This document shows, one piece after another, positions 3,679-39,100 of a DNA stretch of 64,000 nt (the first letter of the stretch is position 1; the number at the start of each line of letters is the position of its first letter). The notes under the pieces were generated by a model, which had not been told where the DNA came from, ran no database searches, and saw only the letters and a list, made by a program, of their open reading frames with translations. Source of the DNA: a virus (lineage: Duplodnaviria > Caudoviricetes). The stretch covers positions 452 through 64,451 of the IMG/VR virus record IMGVR_UViG_3300020049_011574. The stretch is one strand, 5' to 3'. The position numbers and the translations under genes are program-made.

Positions 3679-3932
3679 TGAACACAATACAAAGCGGATA
3701 TAAGCTAACAGCCAACAAAGCACAAGCTAAGGTAGATGCTATTAGAGATAACCCAGTAATGCAACAGATACTAGCCGACTCATTCGGCGGCATAATGTAC
3801 AACACAGCAAACCAACACAAATACAACACAACCAACCTACTAGCACAATGGGACAAGCTCACACCAACAGAGCAAGACCTAGCTGGTGGCATAATCAAGG
3901 GTGCTATCAACTTCATCCAAGACCAAGACTAA
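3678..3932 (+). CDS. Hypothetical early protein
   Basis: 84-aa ORF; TAATG overlap; GAGG RBS. Confidence 0.75.
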   Translation: MNTIQSGYKLTANKAQAKVDAIRDNPVMQQILADSFGGIMYNTANQHKYNTTNLLAQWDKLTPTEQDLAGGIIKGAINFIQDQD

Positions 3933-23755: not shown

Positions 23756-24282
23756 ATCTAATCGACGAAAAAACAACTGCCATCCTATCAATTAAACCTA
23801 GGCTAGGTGGAGAATTTAACAAACTTGATAAAGCAATAGAGGGCGCAATAATTTTTAAAGAACTACTTGGAAAATTCGATACTCAATTAACTCCCATTCT
23901 AAATTTCAATGAAACTTTAATACCTATTACTGACCCTAGCCATATGCGTCATACCTATTGGCCAGGGCTACTCGAAGTTCCAGAAGAAGAACCGCACACA
24001 GAAATAGATGGCCAGTTAGAATTAACGACTACTCCAGAACAAGCAACGCCACCTAGGATTATTGACCGCGAATACGGCAATATGACTATCACAGGAGCTT
24101 TAGTAACAAGCCCACAGTTCAAAGCATGGGTAGATTACAACCGACAAGTAGAAATGTTATTCGATATAGACGAAACATTAGGAACAGGATGGATGTCCCC
24201 AGAACATTTCCAAGCGTTTTTAAGGTTTGCTGGAGATAAAAGAAAGTGCAATAAGAAGACATGCAAAAATCACGAATTATAG
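23752..24282 (+). CDS. Hypothetical protein
   Basis: 176 aa; ATGA overlap. Confidence 0.7.
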   Translation: MNLIDEKTTAILSIKPRLGGEFNKLDKAIEGAIIFKELLGKFDTQLTPILNFNETLIPITDPSHMRHTYWPGLLEVPEEEPHTEIDGQLELTTTPEQATPPRIIDREYGNMTITGALVTSPQFKAWVDYNRQVEMLFDIDETLGTGWMSPEHFQAFLRFAGDKRKCNKKTCKNHEL

Positions 24283-24440
24283 GAATAGATCCAGCTAGTA
24301 GAGATGGAGACGAATGTGCTGTATGTGTAGCAGAAAGAGATGATGAAGGCAACACTAATATCATTTTCACACAACGGCACTTGCCAACTTATACAGTAAA
24401 AATAACAGAACAAAAGAAGGAAACGAAATGCCAAGAATAG
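24261..24440 (+). CDS. Small protein (59 aa) with an RNase H-fold-like first strand
   Basis: MQKSRIIGIDPASRDGDECAVCVAE; fills the gap between two genes. Confidence 0.5.
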   Translation: MQKSRIIGIDPASRDGDECAVCVAERDDEGNTNIIFTQRHLPTYTVKITEQKKETKCQE

Positions 24441-24838
24441 CCGAACGCAAAATACATGCTTACTATTATGAATCTATCCTAGATGGTTCTAAGACCTACG
24501 AGCTGCGCCCACACGACAAGGAACTAGCTGAATGTGATATTCTCCGCCTGGTAGAAGTTGACCCGTTAGGAGCGCCTACAGGGCGTGGAGGAGACTATAA
24601 AGTTACAGCTAAAATGTCTATAGGCACACTTAAACCAGATTATGATGATTTTCAACCAGAAAATTTTATGGCAATGAGCATCACCCCTGTTAAGCAATTA
24701 ACAAAAGCAGAAACATTAGCAGCATTAGCTAAAGCTGAAGAAAAATTTAAAGGTGACGATTTTTTAATAGAAGCCCTTGGAATACTCGCTCAATATATAG
24801 GTGACGATCAAATCAAAATAGCATTGGAGCGTTATTAA
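24428..24838 (+). CDS. ASCH/DUF3850 domain protein
   Basis: KIHAYYYESILDGSKTYELR..D....GDILRLVE pattern. Confidence 0.8.
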   Translation: MPRIAERKIHAYYYESILDGSKTYELRPHDKELAECDILRLVEVDPLGAPTGRGGDYKVTAKMSIGTLKPDYDDFQPENFMAMSITPVKQLTKAETLAALAKAEEKFKGDDFLIEALGILAQYIGDDQIKIALERY

Positions 24839-25038
24839 TGGGAAGTGAATTTATTAAACGACAAGCTGAAAGCATGAAACAAATAGTAGATCATGCAGCA
24901 AACCATGGTTCTTTTGAAGCAGAAATTGACGGAGATATTTACTTAATCACTCCCGTATCTATGTCTATAGATATAGATAGTTTATTGCATGGTGAAGTTC
25001 ATTATCGGAAAAAAAGCGAAAGTGGAATACATGGGTAG
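24838..25038 (+). CDS. Hypothetical protein
   Basis: 66 aa, coupled. Confidence 0.55.
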   Translation: MGSEFIKRQAESMKQIVDHAANHGSFEAEIDGDIYLITPVSMSIDIDSLLHGEVHYRKKSESGIHG

Positions 25039-25327
25039 CCGTATCAAAGCAATGCGAAGAGCGAATATGGATCTTAAAAACAAAGAACCTAAAGAAACAT
25101 TCGAAGGTAAAAAGAAACTTGCCCTAATGATTGCAGAGATGGGGATAGGTGCACACATATTTACCTTCAATGGCCAAGGATATGTAGCCTATAAAGGTGG
25201 TAAACACGCTAAAATATTTCCAGGAGAAGTAGCTGAGATCTATGAAGACGGTGAAGAAAAAATCGTCAAATGGGAACTCAGTCTTGACGAAGGAATCGTA
25301 GAAGTAAACCGACCTTTGGAGGAATAA
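24989..25327 (+). CDS. Hypothetical protein
   Basis: 112 aa. Confidence 0.6.
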   Translation: MVKFIIGKKAKVEYMGSRIKAMRRANMDLKNKEPKETFEGKKKLALMIAEMGIGAHIFTFNGQGYVAYKGGKHAKIFPGEVAEIYEDGEEKIVKWELSLDEGIVEVNRPLEE

Positions 25328-25651
25328 TGGCCGTAGCATACGACTACTGGTGTAGCAAACACGGAGAATTTGAATGGCACAAACCATCAATACACGACGA
25401 AACACCCAAAGACGTACCATGTCCACTATGTGGAGAATCGGCTAAACAATTATTTGGGATGCCAGCAATAGAAAGTAGAAGTAAACCGACCTTTGGAGGA
25501 ATAATGGCCGTAGCATACGACTACTGGTGTAGCAAACACAGAGAATTTGAATGGCACAAACCATCAATACACGACGAAACACCCAAAGACGTACCATGTC
25601 CACTATGTGGAGAATCGGCTAAACAATTATTTGGGATGCCAGCAATAGAAA
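25298..25651 (+). repeat. Tandem duplication of 177 bp (25298-25474 and 25475-25651)
   Basis: Copies are identical except one G/A that I could see; each unit includes the GGAGG RBS and ATG. Confidence 0.95.
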
Positions 25652-25683
25652 AAGGCTGGATGCCAGCAAAGAACAATAGGTAA
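25327..25683 (+). CDS. FmdB-like zinc-ribbon protein, duplicated in frame
   Basis: YDYWCSKH.EFE...CPLCG...KQLFG occurs twice. Confidence 0.8.
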   Translation: MAVAYDYWCSKHGEFEWHKPSIHDETPKDVPCPLCGESAKQLFGMPAIESRSKPTFGGIMAVAYDYWCSKHREFEWHKPSIHDETPKDVPCPLCGESAKQLFGMPAIEKGWMPAKNNR

Positions 25684-25691
25684 ATAGAAGT

Positions 25692-25736
25692 TGGTCGCGG
25701 GAGTGGGAATCGAACCCACTACCTTCGGGATATGAG
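25692..25736 (-). tRNA. 3' half of an initiator-type tRNA-Met(CAT)
   Basis: CTCATATCCCGAAGGTAGTGGGTTCGATTCCCACTCCCGCGACCA: anticodon loop, perfect T-arm, CCA end. Confidence 0.85.
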
Positions 25737-26129
25737 CTGGGAAGAATAAGTACAATTTCTACTACAAAACAATTTACCTGTCTTGTTTCTTTTTAATCTA
25801 AGCCTATACGTATGAGGTTTTAAGGAGAAATTTTCTTTACACCAGTCGCATTCAATTTCAATCAGAGGAACAGATTTTACGTGTAACCGAGAATGGTGAG
25901 AACGACTTAAAACTTCTAGATTCTCTATTCTGTTATCAGACTTATTTTCGTTCCGGTGATGTACTATCTCATTGGGTTGTAGGAATCTTTTGAGTTTATT
26001 TTCTATTAAGACTCGATGTAGAGGGTATAGCCCATTGCTATTAGCTTTTGGATGAGGTGGATTTGTCCGAGCATACATATACCCACCACCTTTACAGGTG
26101 TGAATTATTTCTAAAGGCTTAAACTCCAT
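25719..26129 (-). CDS. HNH homing endonuclease lying between the tRNA halves
   Basis: LHRVLIE...EIVHHRNENKSDNRIENLEVL..SHHSRLH; its stop codon lies inside the tRNA 3' half. Confidence 0.92.
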   Translation of the reverse strand: MEFKPLEIIHTCKGGGYMYARTNPPHPKANSNGLYPLHRVLIENKLKRFLQPNEIVHHRNENKSDNRIENLEVLSRSHHSRLHVKSVPLIEIECDWCKENFSLKPHTYRLRLKRNKTGKLFCSRNCTYSSQLISRR

Positions 26130-26165
26130 TCTTTTATTTTAGCAAAAGAGTTACCGAAATGCAAT

Positions 26166-26195
26166 CTGACGAGCCACCAATGCTTCCATCCCGCA
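26166..26195 (-). tRNA. 5' half of the same tRNA-Met-like gene
   Basis: TGCGGGATGGAAGCATTGGTGGCTCGTCAG; TGCGGGA pairs with the TCCCGCG acceptor strand of the 3' half. Confidence 0.65.
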
Positions 26196-26212
26196 AAAAT
26201 ACTATAACACAT

Positions 26213-26286
26213 GCTGACTTGGCGAAGTGGCTTAACGCGCGTGATTGCAAACCACGTATTCATCGGTTCGACTCCGATAGTCAGCT
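26213..26286 (+). tRNA. tRNA-Cys(GCA)
   Basis: Acceptor GCTGACT/AGTCAGC, U73, D-stem GCG/CGC, T-arm ATCGG-TTCGACT-CCGAT. One A31-C39 mismatch; CCA not encoded. Confidence 0.88.
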
Positions 26287-26610
26287 CTCAACATGTTCAA
26301 TTAGTTTCAACTCCATACCAAAAAAATCTGACTTAATTGGAGCAAAAAACTTTAAAGTCTTCACGTACTTAGGTTTATCGTCAATCAAAACGCCAGCATC
26401 TACAAGGCCATCCATAGCAGCTTTAGCCCAATTGCCCAAAGAACCAACATCAGGCTGAACACCATTAATTATATAATGATAAACTTCTATATCAACGCAA
26501 TCAAACTTACTAGGATCTTCCATAGCCAACCAATAGAAAGCTGTACGGACACTCTTTTTGATCTCAGATTGCCTGAACCTATTCTTAGCTCCATAAACAT
26601 TCATCAGCAC
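26281..26610 (-). CDS. rusA: RusA-like Holliday junction resolvase
   Basis: PDVGSLGNWAKAAMDGLVDAGVLIDDKPKYV matches the RusA D-x-x-N-x-x-K...DGL..AG...DD pattern. Confidence 0.8.
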   Translation of the reverse strand: MLMNVYGAKNRFRQSEIKKSVRTAFYWLAMEDPSKFDCVDIEVYHYIINGVQPDVGSLGNWAKAAMDGLVDAGVLIDDKPKYVKTLKFFAPIKSDFFGMELKLIEHVES

Positions 26611-26642
26611 AGGGCGTTGTTTGTAAGTATAACTTTTAGTTT

Positions 26643-26927
26643 TTAAGATAACCGACCAGCTTCCACATCACGATTACACCACATACAATAAATAGCGATC
26701 AAATTAATAATAGCAAAATCATCATCCATACGATCCTCAGACAAATACTCCATCATCAGAAGAGGCTGATCACAACACTTCCCTACTTGTTTAAAGAACT
26801 CTTCGTAGTTCTCTTCGGGAAATTCTTTATGTAAAATAGGCGACTCAGGTTCTTCATAGTAAGCGAAAGGTTTATAATACCGATCTGTGTTCTTACGATT
26901 TTGCGGGTGCTTTTTATCCCAGCCCAT
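26643..26927 (-). CDS. Hypothetical protein with four Cys
   Basis: 94 aa; CCD...CMWC. Confidence 0.6.
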   Translation of the reverse strand: MGWDKKHPQNRKNTDRYYKPFAYYEEPESPILHKEFPEENYEEFFKQVGKCCDQPLLMMEYLSEDRMDDDFAIINLIAIYCMWCNRDVEAGRLS

Positions 26928-26931
26928 AAAT

Positions 26932-27303
26932 TTAGTCTACTAGATGTAAACCGAAATAAATATCATGCCACGCACGATTCAATTCTAAGATGCCAGGATT
27001 TGATTCTAACCAACTCTTAGCTTCAGGACTACCAATATGCGTACCTACTGGATAGCCAAGGTTAAAACGCACAGCAGCCATCCCAGTCGGCTTATCTACA
27101 TGGGAATCAAAACGAGTACCAAGTTCTGTAGCCATATCTCTAGCAATAGAAATAAAATCTTCAGTACCAATCCACTTAGGTTGAACACAAGCAGGCCCAC
27201 CTTGATAGGCAGATTCTAAAACATAGATACGAGCAGCTTGCTCTATCATGTCTGTAATCATTGGTTCAGTTCGTTGAGCTTTAGGTACACCATTAATTGC
27301 CAT
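26932..27303 (-). CDS. Hypothetical protein
   Basis: 123 aa. Confidence 0.65.
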   Translation of the reverse strand: MAINGVPKAQRTEPMITDMIEQAARIYVLESAYQGGPACVQPKWIGTEDFISIARDMATELGTRFDSHVDKPTGMAAVRFNLGYPVGTHIGSPEAKSWLESNPGILELNRAWHDIYFGLHLVD

Positions 27304-27324
27304 AGTGAAACCTTAACACGATAA

Positions 27325-27576
27325 CTACTGTTTGGGAATAACTTCACCACTAGGAGTGACAGGAGAAACCTTTGGTCGAACATACTTCACGATTCCACCA
27401 CCCACAATAAACATGATAACAATGTCGGTAAGAGTTTTACCAGCACTGATTTCTTCAATGATACCTTGAACTATTTGGGCAATAACACCCAAAACTGTTA
27501 AAACGGAAGTAAAGAATACAACTGGTTCACGTCCAAAGATTTTATAAGTATTAAGATCACGATTAAAAAATTTCAT
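27325..27576 (-). CDS. Holin (actinophage type)
   Basis: REPV, two TM helices, VRPKVSPV C-terminal motif; AGGAG RBS. Confidence 0.75.
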   Translation of the reverse strand: MKFFNRDLNTYKIFGREPVVFFTSVLTVLGVIAQIVQGIIEEISAGKTLTDIVIMFIVGGGIVKYVRPKVSPVTPSGEVIPKQ

Positions 27577-27661
27577 ATTTTCTCCTAGAAAATTGTATCT
27601 TATTGTTTACTCTCGTAGTATAGTGTCAGTGTTACACATATAAAAGTATAAGTAGGGTTCT

Positions 27662-28081
27662 TTGTCCTGGATTAAAAATGGCTTTTGTGTGGGCTTACCG
27701 ACGGATTGGTTTTTTCCACCACGGGGCAATAGTGTCGATTCGATCATAACACGCTCTCTTGCGCGTACTACCTGTTCCATATGTCCCTATAAAGACCAAT
27801 GCTCAGAAGAGTTTGAGGAACTAAAAAAAGAATGGAAGCTAGGAATCTGGGGCGGGCTGACAGAAAAAGATCGCAAACGAATAAAAAAATCAGCAGCAGC
27901 AGACGGATCAATCACAGCAGAAACTATAATCAAACGACACCAAAAAGAATTTCTAAGCGAACGAACACAAAACAGAATGATAAAAAAATCAGAGACAGAC
28001 CCCAAAGTGAAACAAATAAACGAATGGTTAATATATGAACTCGGTCTTCTTGAGTCAGAAGAAGAAACCAATGCAGAATAG
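27662..28081 (+). CDS. whiB: WhiB-family transcription factor with C-terminal extension
   Basis: C-x28-C-x2-C-x5-C, DWFFP, GIWGGLTEKDR. Confidence 0.92.
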   Translation: MSWIKNGFCVGLPTDWFFPPRGNSVDSIITRSLARTTCSICPYKDQCSEEFEELKKEWKLGIWGGLTEKDRKRIKKSAAADGSITAETIIKRHQKEFLSERTQNRMIKKSETDPKVKQINEWLIYELGLLESEEETNAE

Positions 28082-36179: not shown

Positions 36180-39100
36180 TAAAGACCCCTTAACGTAGAT
36201 AAAATTTGGCTAGCAGCAATATGCCCTCTTAAAGCAGGATCTTTAGCCCCACTCTCAACCTTTACAACAATCTCACCAACAGTTGTATTATTGTTATTAC
36301 TGTTACTAGTTCCACCAGAAATATTCAAAGCATTAGCAATAGCTTCTTGACCTTGCTGGCCAAGAGAACCGTTACGTGCAGCATAAGATATAAGTTTAGC
36401 CATACGTTCAGGCTGACTTAAAGGCAACACGATCTCACTTTGTCCACGCTCACCAATATTGGCGATAATACCATTAGTAGTACCTTTAACAAATCCACCA
36501 GAATGTAAAGCAACGTGACCATGGTTATAATGACCAGCCAACACATTCAAAGGATATTGGGAACGCTTACCATTTTTAATACCATAACCCAAAGGAGTAT
36601 GAATAAGTTCGGCAAGATAAGGAGCATACTGAGTCCACCATTTAGCCATCTGCAACATTTGAGGGGCAGTACCAACGAAGTCAACAGCGCGAGCAACAGA
36701 ATGTAAAGAACTATTACCACTCGCTGTAATCGCCCCAGGACGCACCGTAGAGGAAACACCAAATGGAAGTCCAGAACCATTCATTGCTTGAATAAGAGTT
36801 TTATAACTACCAGGCTTACCTTTAGCAGCAAGCAAAGAATCAACAACAGCACCAGAAGCAATAACGCCAGTAACACCAGAACCAGCAAACAAAGCAGCAG
36901 TAGCTTTCTGAACGTATTGAATAGAAGCTTCCGCGAATCTAGTAACTACAGCATCGGCCATATTGCGAATAATCACACCACTTGAATATTGTCTCAAATA
37001 GTTATCTTTAGCAGCATTAATAGCCGCAACTTCTTTAACACCAGTATAAGAAGAAGCCTCCTCGCCATCTTTACCAAGACCATCGCCAATTAAGCCTTTG
37101 CGTAGCATTTCAAAGCGACCCTTACCGAGTTTCATCATTGTACTTTCAGGAAGGACACCCTCGCCTTTTTTACCCACAATCAATTGTTCACCAGCAGTGA
37201 AACGACCGCTATGAGTATCACTCTTTTCTCCGATAATACCACCAGTATGAAACTTAGGAATCTGAGGGAAAACATTATCACCAAGGCCCAAAGCCTTACT
37301 CATAGTATTTAGGCTAGCAAGATAAGTATTAAGAGGAACAGAAGTAGTTCTAAACGGATCTAAAATAGCATTAGGAAGATTCTTTAGACCAGCAGTAAAT
37401 GAAGTGGTTAAAGCGTTAGCGAACTCTGTACCCATACTAGTGAACGCGCTATTAATAACAACTTTAGTCGTCGCAATAGTCTGAGTAAATCCGATAGAAG
37501 CACCCTCGCCAAGAGAAGTACCGATTTTAATACCTGTACCAATATACGCAAAAGGGTCATCTACTAGAGCTTTATTAACAGACGCAGGCAAAGCTTGCAC
37601 CGATGTAGTTATATTGTCAATTTGTGGCTGAATAGCCTCATCTATCTTCGCATTAGTAAAAGTAGTATTAATCGAAGTAGCAGTAGCAGCAGCTTGAGTA
37701 TTTAGACTAGTGAAAACTGTTTTCTGGGCAGTATCAATAAATGCTTGTAAACGGGTTTGCTCTTCAAGAACACCAGCATATAGCGGGTTGTCTTTAATCG
37801 CAGCTTCAACATCAATACCCTTTTCCCCATGCTGTTTAAGAACTTTATTTTTCTTATATAACTCTTGACGTTTAGCTTCAATTTGAGTATCAATCTCAGA
37901 AAGACGAGTTGCAGCCGCATCAATAGTAGCCTGATCCGGTTCTTTAATATTAAATGTTGGAGCACCAAGTTCACCAGGATTAAACCCATTAATTTTCTCA
38001 AAATTAGTCTGAACAATACCTGTAACATCTTTAGTATATTTACCATAGACCTCTTCAGCAGAAGCAAGAGAAGCACGAATATCACCAGCAAGCTTAGGAT
38101 TCTTAGCAAGATCTTTAGCCAATTGTCCACCAGCAGCAGGGCCAAGAGCAGCAATTTTCTCAGCAAGATCAGGAAATTCAGTTTTCAGCTTATTAATATT
38201 CTCACCAAAGGATTTAACGCCATCGACATAAGCCTTCAGGTTATCCTTCAAAGTTTGAGCACTAATACCACCGATCTCAAATTTGAAATCAGCTTTAAAC
38301 GCATCACTAATAGCAGGTAAAGCCTTACCAATTTCCTCACCAGTTTTACGAATCTCATCAACAAGATCACTCTTAAAGCTAGCGATTTTCTTAGCGAACT
38401 CTTTAGCCCCAGCTTCATCAAGTCCAAGCTTTCCAGCAATAGTGTCAATAAGAGCGCCAACGCCAGTAGGATTATTTTGAATCTCATTATAAACCTGAGC
38501 ATAAAGGGCTTTGAAACCTTTAGAGCCAAGACCAGCCTGGACAGAATCAAACGAAAGTTCACCTATCCCAGTTCCAACATTTTGTACAGCAGTAGCCAAT
38601 TCTTGCAAAGCTGTAGCAGCTTCATTGGCCGCATCAGGAGAGCTAGTCATAGCTTTATTCAGAATATCTTGAGCTTGAGCACCTTGAATACTTCCGTTAG
38701 CTACACCACGCAATTGCTCTCTTAGGCTCTTCGCCGCAATAGCATTCTCAGCAATAGTTTTACTTACCTTCTCGTAAGCTCCAGCAACATCGCCACTCTT
38801 CTTAAATTCTTCTTTAACACCCTTAACAAATGAGGCAGAAGTTTTATTACCTGCATCCTCAGAAGCTTTAATATTGTCATCCAAGATTGCGGTAAATGAA
38901 TCTTTATATTGTTGGCGTAACTTCTTTAAGTTTTTAGCAGCATTTTCAGGATTGACAGCAGTAGAACTTAGATTTCTGTTTTCACGAACAACTTGGCCTG
39001 CAAGATTAAGATCGGAAATAACTTTATTAAATTCTTTATCGCTACCAACAACGACGCTTTTAATTAGACTTTCGTCACCTTCAACAATTTTACGAGCACG

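Follow-up and report, generated by a model that had tools for sequence, protein, structure and literature searches.

An initiator-type tRNA-Met gene of a phage, interrupted in its anticodon region by an HNH endonuclease gene

A split tRNA gene and the nuclease gene within it

On the minus strand of the stretch of phage DNA analysed here (the window, 64,000 nt), the two halves of an initiator-like tRNA-Met gene flank an open reading frame for an HNH homing endonuclease (Table 1). The window covers nearly all of a 64.45-kb IMG/VR virus record that is rated 84% complete. The insert is essentially the nuclease ORF alone: its non-coding part amounts to the 35 nt ahead of the ATG, with zero after the ORF, and the gene borrows its last codons and its stop from the 3' half of the tRNA, which encodes the final six codons together with the TAG (25721-25719), a stop that spans the variable loop and the first base of the T stem. 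The trinucleotide CAG is found at both tRNA/insert junctions. The element is not nested in a further tRNA: the minus-strand sequence ahead of 26195 is a tRNA-Cys in antisense, and past 25692 there is nothing tRNA-like. The hairpin downstream of the tRNA sits where the plus- and minus-strand gene blocks converge.

Table 1 Features of the split tRNA and its insert, in window coordinates
Feature	Position	Strand	Support
5' half of the initiator-like tRNA-Met (tRNA positions 1-31)	26165-26195	-	ARAGORN, bacterial relatives, stem table
Acceptor strand of the 5' half	26195-26189	-	
D arm of the 5' half, with one extra A in the 5' D-stem strand	26186-26171	-	
5' anticodon-stem strand; A at 26167 and 26165 where initiators carry G	26169-26165	-	
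Insert of 428 nt between tRNA positions 31 and 32: 35-nt leader, then ORF; last bases CAG	25737-26164	-	
HNH_3 homing-endonuclease gene, 136 aa	25719-26129	-	Pfam HNH_3, PHROGs, 40-member alignment
3' half (tRNA positions 32-76)	25692-25736	-	ARAGORN, tRNA-fMet profile, bacterial relatives
Anticodon CAT in the 7-nt loop of the 3' half	25734-25732	-	
3' anticodon-stem strand, then variable loop	25729-25725 (strand)	-	
T arm with canonical T loop	25719-25703	-	
3' acceptor strand, then discriminator A	25702-25696 (strand)	-	
Encoded CCA	25694-25692	-	
Terminator-like hairpin and T run, 25 nt past the tRNA 3' end	25655-25667	-	Consensus scan only

An earlier reading, made from the letters of the DNA without database searches (the sequence-only reading), had described the locus as a tRNA-Met(CAT) whose anticodon arm is interrupted by an HNH gene, a description that ARAGORN, profile matching and bacterial relatives all bear out. 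Its spacer of about 430 nt, nearly all HNH ORF with the last codons and TAG inside the 3' half, measures 428 nt (ORF 26129-25719), and the CAG that it had noticed at both junctions is indeed present. Of its coordinates, those of the 3' half (25736-25692) stand, while the end of the 5' half, placed at 26166, was off by one and lies at 26165.

We examined how well the two halves fit together as one tRNA. The acceptor strands, whose complementarity (TGCGGGA/TCCCGCG) had already been pointed out, pair at 7/7 positions, including one T.G wobble at 1:72, where the nearest bacterial initiators carry T or C opposite T or A; this complementarity argues against the two halves having come from unrelated tRNA genes. 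The T stem pairs at 5/5 positions and its loop is canonical. The anticodon stem pairs at just 3/5 positions, with A.C mismatches at 29:41 and 31:39, and the three consecutive G:C pairs at 29-31:39-41 that characterize initiators are absent, because A replaces G at positions 29 and 31 and so stands opposite C. Simple rejoining of the halves would thus give the poorly paired anticodon stem that the sequence-only reading had anticipated.

At default settings ARAGORN missed the split gene and called only the tRNA-Cys on the other strand, an example of how default tRNA finders miss such split genes in annotation. With introns allowed and a threshold of 90%, the same program reported a tRNA-Met(cat) with a 428-nt insert at 31/32, and given the halves joined in silico (76 nt) it called a tRNA-Met at default, with CAT in a 7-nt loop, a result that speaks against the 5' segment being mere background. 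A tRNA-fMet profile matched the 3' half at E 2e-10. In a scan of one genome per bacterial species, the closest tRNAs were initiator tRNAs of Dehalococcoidia and other Chloroflexota and of Rubrobacter, from the nearest of which the 3' half differs at 4/45 positions; compared with the same tRNAs, the 5' half has one A too many in the D stem and differs by three changes in the D loop and by the G-to-A changes at 29 and 31. By these comparisons both halves are homologous to tRNA-fMet and make up one tRNA-fMet-like gene, in which damage is clearly greater in the 5' half. A chance match is excluded, as unrelated contigs show this layout too around homologues of the HNH gene. The tRNA itself is most likely dead.

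The nuclease, by contrast with its damaged surroundings in the 5' half, appears intact. Its ORF matches Pfam HNH_3 (PF13392, 8.3e-11) and carries a Cys4 tail, its PHROGs matches are HNH endonuclease families, and the protein keeps all invariant His/Asn residues and the four Cys of a 40-member family alignment, by which measure the gene is intact. A sequence search of the PDB with the family profile returned just chance zinc-finger matches. Elsewhere in the window, a second HNH_3 match (E 4.7e-9) lies at about 1980-2054 on the minus strand, in a 150-aa open frame that is not adjacent to a tRNA.

Searches for an intron or ribozyme in the insert came back empty. A permissive Rfam scan of positions 24000-28000 matched neither introns nor ribozymes at E values up to 10, a result that covers both the group I core (RF00028) and, at the insert, a group II core; no self-cleaving ribozymes were found at the junctions in the window by Rfam scan. 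The same Rfam model does find group I cores in two loci of the wider nuclease family, L118 (94.5 bits) and L108 (42.9 bits), where L-numbers designate fetched family loci, about 180 in all, and WIN the window locus; up to E 0.1 it finds none in L009, L101, L103 and L104. There is in any case no place for a group I core, which takes about 200 nt, because the HNH domain of the window reaches to within 15 nt of the T arm. With the Rfam scan empty and 35 nt non-coding, the sequence-only reading was right that it saw neither room for nor motifs of such a core. The base ahead of the insert is A and not the U of group I splicing; the last base of the insert is G. The whole RNA of 507 nt folds no better than its shuffles (z -0.21), and its minimum-energy fold does not form the acceptor stem. 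For an archaeal bulge-helix-bulge, which has a 4-bp helix flanked by two 3-nt bulges at the junctions, inspection alone revealed no such central helix past 26165 or before 25737, and the minimum-energy fold contains none. The record holds no match to tyrosine integrase (PF00589) and encodes neither RtcB nor an RNA ligase.

Near-identical sequence was present in runs of 12 studies, mainly from wastewater, bioreactor and freshwater metagenomes. The gene content of the phage (WhiB genes, a RusA-like gene and a DnaB-like helicase) and distant capsid matches to Gordonia and Microbacterium phages suggest that the host is bacterial and probably actinobacterial. A 3.6-kb contig from one run has the insert in place with 3 base changes relative to the window (2 synonymous, 1 E2K), and eight further assemblies of the phage (8 of 22 contigs read) have a layout identical to that of the window with the same three changes only; variation of the HNH gene in the population thus comprises two synonymous changes and one non-synonymous change. 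Neither the contigs of four runs nor the eight further assemblies contained an HNH-less allele, and no joint across the insert, fusing the 5' half to the 3' half, was found in the run contigs or in those eight assemblies. Two of the runs are labelled RNA-Seq, a label flagged as probably DNA, or as RNA merely by guess; their contigs hold parts of the locus without a joint across the insert, and one of them has no cover of 25738-25816.

The region gave zero megablast matches to cultured phages, and neither the 3' half nor the 5' half nor the neighbouring tRNA-Cys had a match when viral contigs were scanned for the exact patterns. Viral contigs hold zero relatives of the upstream RusA-like gene; a set of 5.8 billion proteins holds one (52%), on a 1.1-kb contig on which the 129 nt past that gene contain no tRNA. 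The neighbouring tRNA-Cys(GCA) (26213-26287, plus strand, 57.4 bits) is antisense to the surrounding minus-strand operon and has no encoded CCA; it lies head to head with the 5' end of the split tRNA, 17 nt away, and shares a 7-nt overlap with the stop of the RusA-like gene. On the other side, at 25327-25683 on the plus strand, is a Zn-ribbon (Zn_ribbon_8) gene of 118 aa that forms a tandem duplicate. The contig of another run skips 177 nt of it (25363 to 25541) and the eight assemblies have a 59-aa single copy; since other contigs carry this single copy, the duplication is a strain variant or an assembly artefact.

The nuclease family at tRNA genes and its sister clade

We identified 123 homologues of the HNH protein at E<=1e-10, with 48-68% identity and nearly all metagenomic. 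Amongst 15 distinct close loci, nine have a tRNA-fMet 3' half that starts between -40 and +8 nt from the ORF stop, and the 3' halves at those nine loci begin at profile positions 30-36, which is the anticodon loop. Members of the family are thus repeatedly fused, at the stop codon, to a tRNA-fMet 3' half starting at the anticodon loop. The stop TAA coincides with tRNA positions 36-38 in L103, L104, L101, L018 and L002; in the window these positions read TAT, and the frame continues to the TAG in the variable loop.

Five loci (WIN, L009, L103, L104 and L021) also retain the 5' half, which lies 43-78 nt upstream of the HNH start and whose acceptor strand is complementary to that of the 3' half. 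Inserts at the split loci span 394-441 nt, and their leaders, the shortest of which have 13 nt, are unrelated in sequence. The integrity of the stems across loci forms a gradient of decay. All stems are perfect in L103 and L104, the loop being split exactly at 34/35 in L104 and the invariant U33 being absent from L103 whatever the junction; in L009 the anticodon is missing; the window has its two mismatches; and in L021 the T arm is broken and one strand of the anticodon stem, the 3' one, is gone. In WIN, L009, L103 and L104 the acceptor and T stems are fully or nearly fully paired, with sequences that differ between the loci. The 5' half has been lost in three or four close loci, with L101, L015 and L018 having the 3' half only, and in L008 and L011 an intact nuclease ORF is accompanied by nothing tRNA-like.

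Further relatives abut or overlap intact tRNA genes in tRNA clusters (L003, L012, L022, L027, L102, L110 and L120), and distant relatives lie beside tRNA genes in the cultured Stenotrophomonas phage SOVA965 and Erwinia phage Hallingskeid. Because relatives of the nuclease occupy the same place in many other phages, we regard the gene as a recurrent mobile element, and the recurrence of the tRNA-fMet junction in unrelated contigs fits such mobility.

Several of these loci hold features of separate interest. In SOVA965, an unannotated tRNA (L193:1320-1394, corresponding to PP079418.1 about 38979-39053; 37.5 bits, above the Rfam cut-off) begins 4 nt past the stop of an annotated HNH homing endonuclease, whose gene follows a cluster of four tRNAs, the last of them a tRNA-Met. 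The nuclease of L002 is the closest relative on a viral contig (57% identity) and ends, with its TAA in the CAT loop, inside a contiguous cloverleaf-like sequence (L002:3389-3461) with 3 nt in its D loop and a T loop that departs from the canonical form; relaxed ARAGORN alone calls it, and Rfam does not. L010 carries a hatchet ribozyme (787-954, 74.2 bits), a twister-P1 (2372-2423, 56.7 bits, below the cut-off) and a pistol (3705-3765, 48.7 bits) within 3 kb; the twister is ~80 nt upstream of the family HNH gene, the two being separated by a stretch that weakly resembles a tRNA 5' half. On the viral contig of L081, positions 2468-2778 match a permuted or beta-type tmRNA (82 bits), ~1 kb downstream of a distantly related HNH gene.

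In a sister clade (support 98/93), the nuclease genes reside inside true group I introns of phage tRNA-Arg(UCU) genes, at site 34/35. The Rfam group I core in L108 (42.9 bits) overlaps the ORF tail, while L118 has a group I intron in a tRNA (1796-2080, 94.5 bits) with the nuclease just upstream; L024, L025, L107 and L115 share conserved core blocks after the HNH domain. The tRNA-Arg(UCU)-like genes split at 34/35 by HNH-bearing group I introns (L024, L025, L107, L108 and L115) come from viral and metagenome contigs. According to a 2014 review, all phage introns then known were in protein-coding genes (PMC3984707); contrary to that survey, the loci found here include phage tRNA genes with group I introns.

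Origin and fate of the split tRNA

The explanation we favour, which we consider probable and hold with moderate confidence, is that an HNH homing-endonuclease gene inserted without a ribozyme into the anticodon region of an initiator-type tRNA-Met gene of the phage, and that the tRNA is not restored. Amongst the options raised by the sequence-only reading, the one in which a homing endonuclease invades its tRNA target and so inactivates it is the best supported, given the lack of a ribozyme, the damaged 5' half and the decay-graded nuclease family. A nuclease of this family would recognize and cut intact tRNA genes near the anticodon, and repair of the break from an occupied allele would copy the nuclease gene in. 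The conserved tRNA halves would act as homology arms and also as the target, and by supplying both they may be what keeps the element spreading. As this lineage has no ribozyme, the transcript would remain unspliced and the tRNA would not be restored; the minus-strand operon transcript would simply serve as the nuclease mRNA, ending at the hairpin 25 nt downstream. The phage may tolerate the loss because an extra initiator tRNA is presumably an accessory, and dispensable. Decay of the 5' half would already have begun, whereas part of the 3' half would be held in place by the reading frame that enters it.

An insertion of this bare kind agrees with the damage to the 5' half in the window and with the graded decay seen from locus to locus in the family. 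The flawless acceptor and T stems and the encoded CCA fit it poorly and could mean that selection acts on the tRNA shape, in place of recent capture. Moreover, the association of nuclease and tRNA has outlasted ~40% protein divergence, so that pure decay requires repeated re-invasion of fresh tRNA genes. We considered compensatory stem changes between split loci as proof of selection and rejected them, as the stems could come from separately invaded functional tRNAs. If the bare insertion is the true explanation, the window holds an ordinary selfish insertion and a dead tRNA.

The more radical alternative is that the split is a design, in which the halves act as a tRNA-shaped frame that stabilizes the mRNA or, in its boldest form, are rejoined without a ribozyme. 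Taken as a whole, we find this doubtful. Its first form, which we deem slightly more doubtful when taken by itself, holds that the halves pair across the ORF, through the acceptor stem together with the T and D arms, and that RNase P and the 3'-end enzymes excise the mRNA from the operon transcript, leaving it with protected, tRNA-like ends and with no role in decoding. It would amount to a natural counterpart of the tRNA scaffolds used in the laboratory. Such a layout resembles that of tmRNA, in which tRNA-like ends surround an internal ORF, and the anticodon arm is where the cargo sits in both the window and engineered tRNA scaffolds; Ponchon and Dardel are said to have described in 2007 scaffolds that carry their cargo in this arm. 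A frame of this kind would explain why acceptor and T stems of differing sequence remain paired in WIN, L009, L103 and L104 and why the degenerate part is the anticodon loop and stem, which it would not need, and it would agree with the CCA being encoded in the split tRNA and not in the tRNA-Cys of the same phage. However, intact ORFs persist without a 5' half (L101, L015 and L018) or without any tRNA piece (L008 and L011), so the frame is not needed for persistence of the gene. The T arm of L021 is broken, the acceptor stem is absent from the minimum-energy fold of the whole RNA, and the paired stems are equally explained by inheritance from recently invaded functional tRNA genes.

Restoration at the RNA level without a ribozyme, in which host nucleases would cut the junctions and a host ligase such as RtcB would rejoin the halves into a working tRNA-Met, strikes us as highly improbable. 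It would account for the call that ARAGORN makes at default on the joined halves, with their normal 7-nt CAT loop, and for the recurrence of the layout in independent phages, and L103 and L104 would yield perfectly paired cloverleaves. Yet the anticodon stem of the window, with its two A.C mismatches and its lost initiator G:C pairs, makes splicing to a working tRNA unlikely there, and in L009, which has no anticodon, it is impossible; L103 lacks the invariant U33 at any junction. The leaders, the shortest of which have just 13 nt, do not resemble one another in sequence, so that no conserved cutting signal exists, and the phage encodes neither an RNA ligase nor RtcB. We know of no bacterial enzyme that removes such an insert.

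The two remaining explanations are close to excluded. A much-degenerated group I intron, with a core overlapping the ORF and splicing still or in trans, has in its favour that the family inserts (at 34/35 in L104) where the group I introns of the sister clade lie, that the core of L108 overlaps the 3' part of its ORF, and that the last base of the insert is G; against it stand the empty Rfam scans (cut-off E 10 for the window, E 0.1 for L009, L101, L103 and L104), the absence of the post-HNH core blocks of the sister clade from an insert whose HNH domain extends so close to the T arm, an ordinary folding energy, and an A before the insert where group I splicing needs U. Least probable of all is that the 3' half copies the end of a host tRNA in the manner of an attP site, as a remnant of integration or for use in it, and that the 5' half is incidental: although the 3' half covers the span from anticodon loop to CCA that tRNA-targeting integrases typically duplicate, the record lacks a tyrosine integrase, no bacterial species representative has the same 3' half (the nearest differ at 4/45), the 5' half located 428 nt upstream is homologous and has an acceptor strand complementary to that of the 3' half, and the fusion of 3' half and HNH ORF recurs in unrelated contigs. 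This option of the sequence-only reading is thus not supported.

Comparison with known systems

Homing endonucleases usually spare their host gene by residing in intergenic DNA or within an intron or intein; the clade described here as a whole occupies the anticodon region of initiator tRNA genes without such cover. A literature search of incomplete coverage found no description of a tRNA gene split by a bare HNH ORF. A close precedent in position is I-Ssp6803I, the endonuclease of a group I intron in cyanobacterial tRNA-fMet genes (Bonocora and Shub 2001, ref 105 in PMC3984707). The likeness lies in an endonuclease gene within the anticodon region of an initiator tRNA, a region for which I-Ssp6803I is specific, and the difference in that its ORF is carried by a self-splicing intron and the tRNA is restored, whereas the window has no ribozyme and its host genome is that of a phage. 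The enzymes also differ in fold, I-Ssp6803I being of the PD-(D/E)xK type and the window enzyme an HNH_3 protein with a Cys4 tail.

Selfish nucleases are at home amongst phage tRNA genes, as exemplified by the free-standing homing endonucleases F-TflI/II/IV of the T5 tRNA clusters. In T4, the free-standing endonuclease SegB recognizes a tRNA-gene sequence (PMC2330249). The window locus resembles these systems in that the nucleases have conserved tRNA-gene targets and spread by cutting an empty allele during co-infection, but SegB is a GIY-YIG enzyme encoded between whole tRNA genes, whereas the HNH gene of the window lies inside a tRNA gene and splits it.

Direct insertion into a conserved gene has parallels amongst protein-coding genes. 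The nrdA gene of Aeromonas phage Aeh1 was reportedly found by Friedrich et al. in 2007 to be split by mobE, likewise an endonuclease gene inserted directly, with no intron. To our knowledge, no comparable rescue exists for a split tRNA: in nrdA and in fractured genes the protein pieces reassemble as subunits or through trans-splicing inteins, whereas the gene interrupted in the window encodes a tRNA. Such 'fractured genes' with split inteins are protein genes that a bare endonuclease insertion has divided (PMC2677866). Amongst tRNAs, those of Lak megaphages contain introns described as 'enigmatic' (PMC6784885), and they share with the window the interruption of phage tRNA genes in the anticodon loop by inserts of no self-splicing class; compared with the Lak introns, the tRNA-shaped parts of the window are the outer halves, and no outer tRNA encloses them.

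A homologous nuclease at site 34/35 is carried by the IC3-like group I introns of phage tRNA-Arg(UCU) genes (L024, L025, L107, L108 and L115, with the L118 nuclease beside one). As in the window, the ORF of these introns begins soon after the 5' exon, but they keep a catalytic core after the HNH domain where the window insert has none. If the tRNA-shaped frame or the rejoining of the halves were true, the family would be the ribozyme-free counterpart of the group I tRNA introns of its sister clade. The bare clade and the group I clade, occupying the same position, form a natural pair for studying how endonuclease genes and ribozymes join and part, and they pose the question of whether a tRNA shape can replace a ribozyme.
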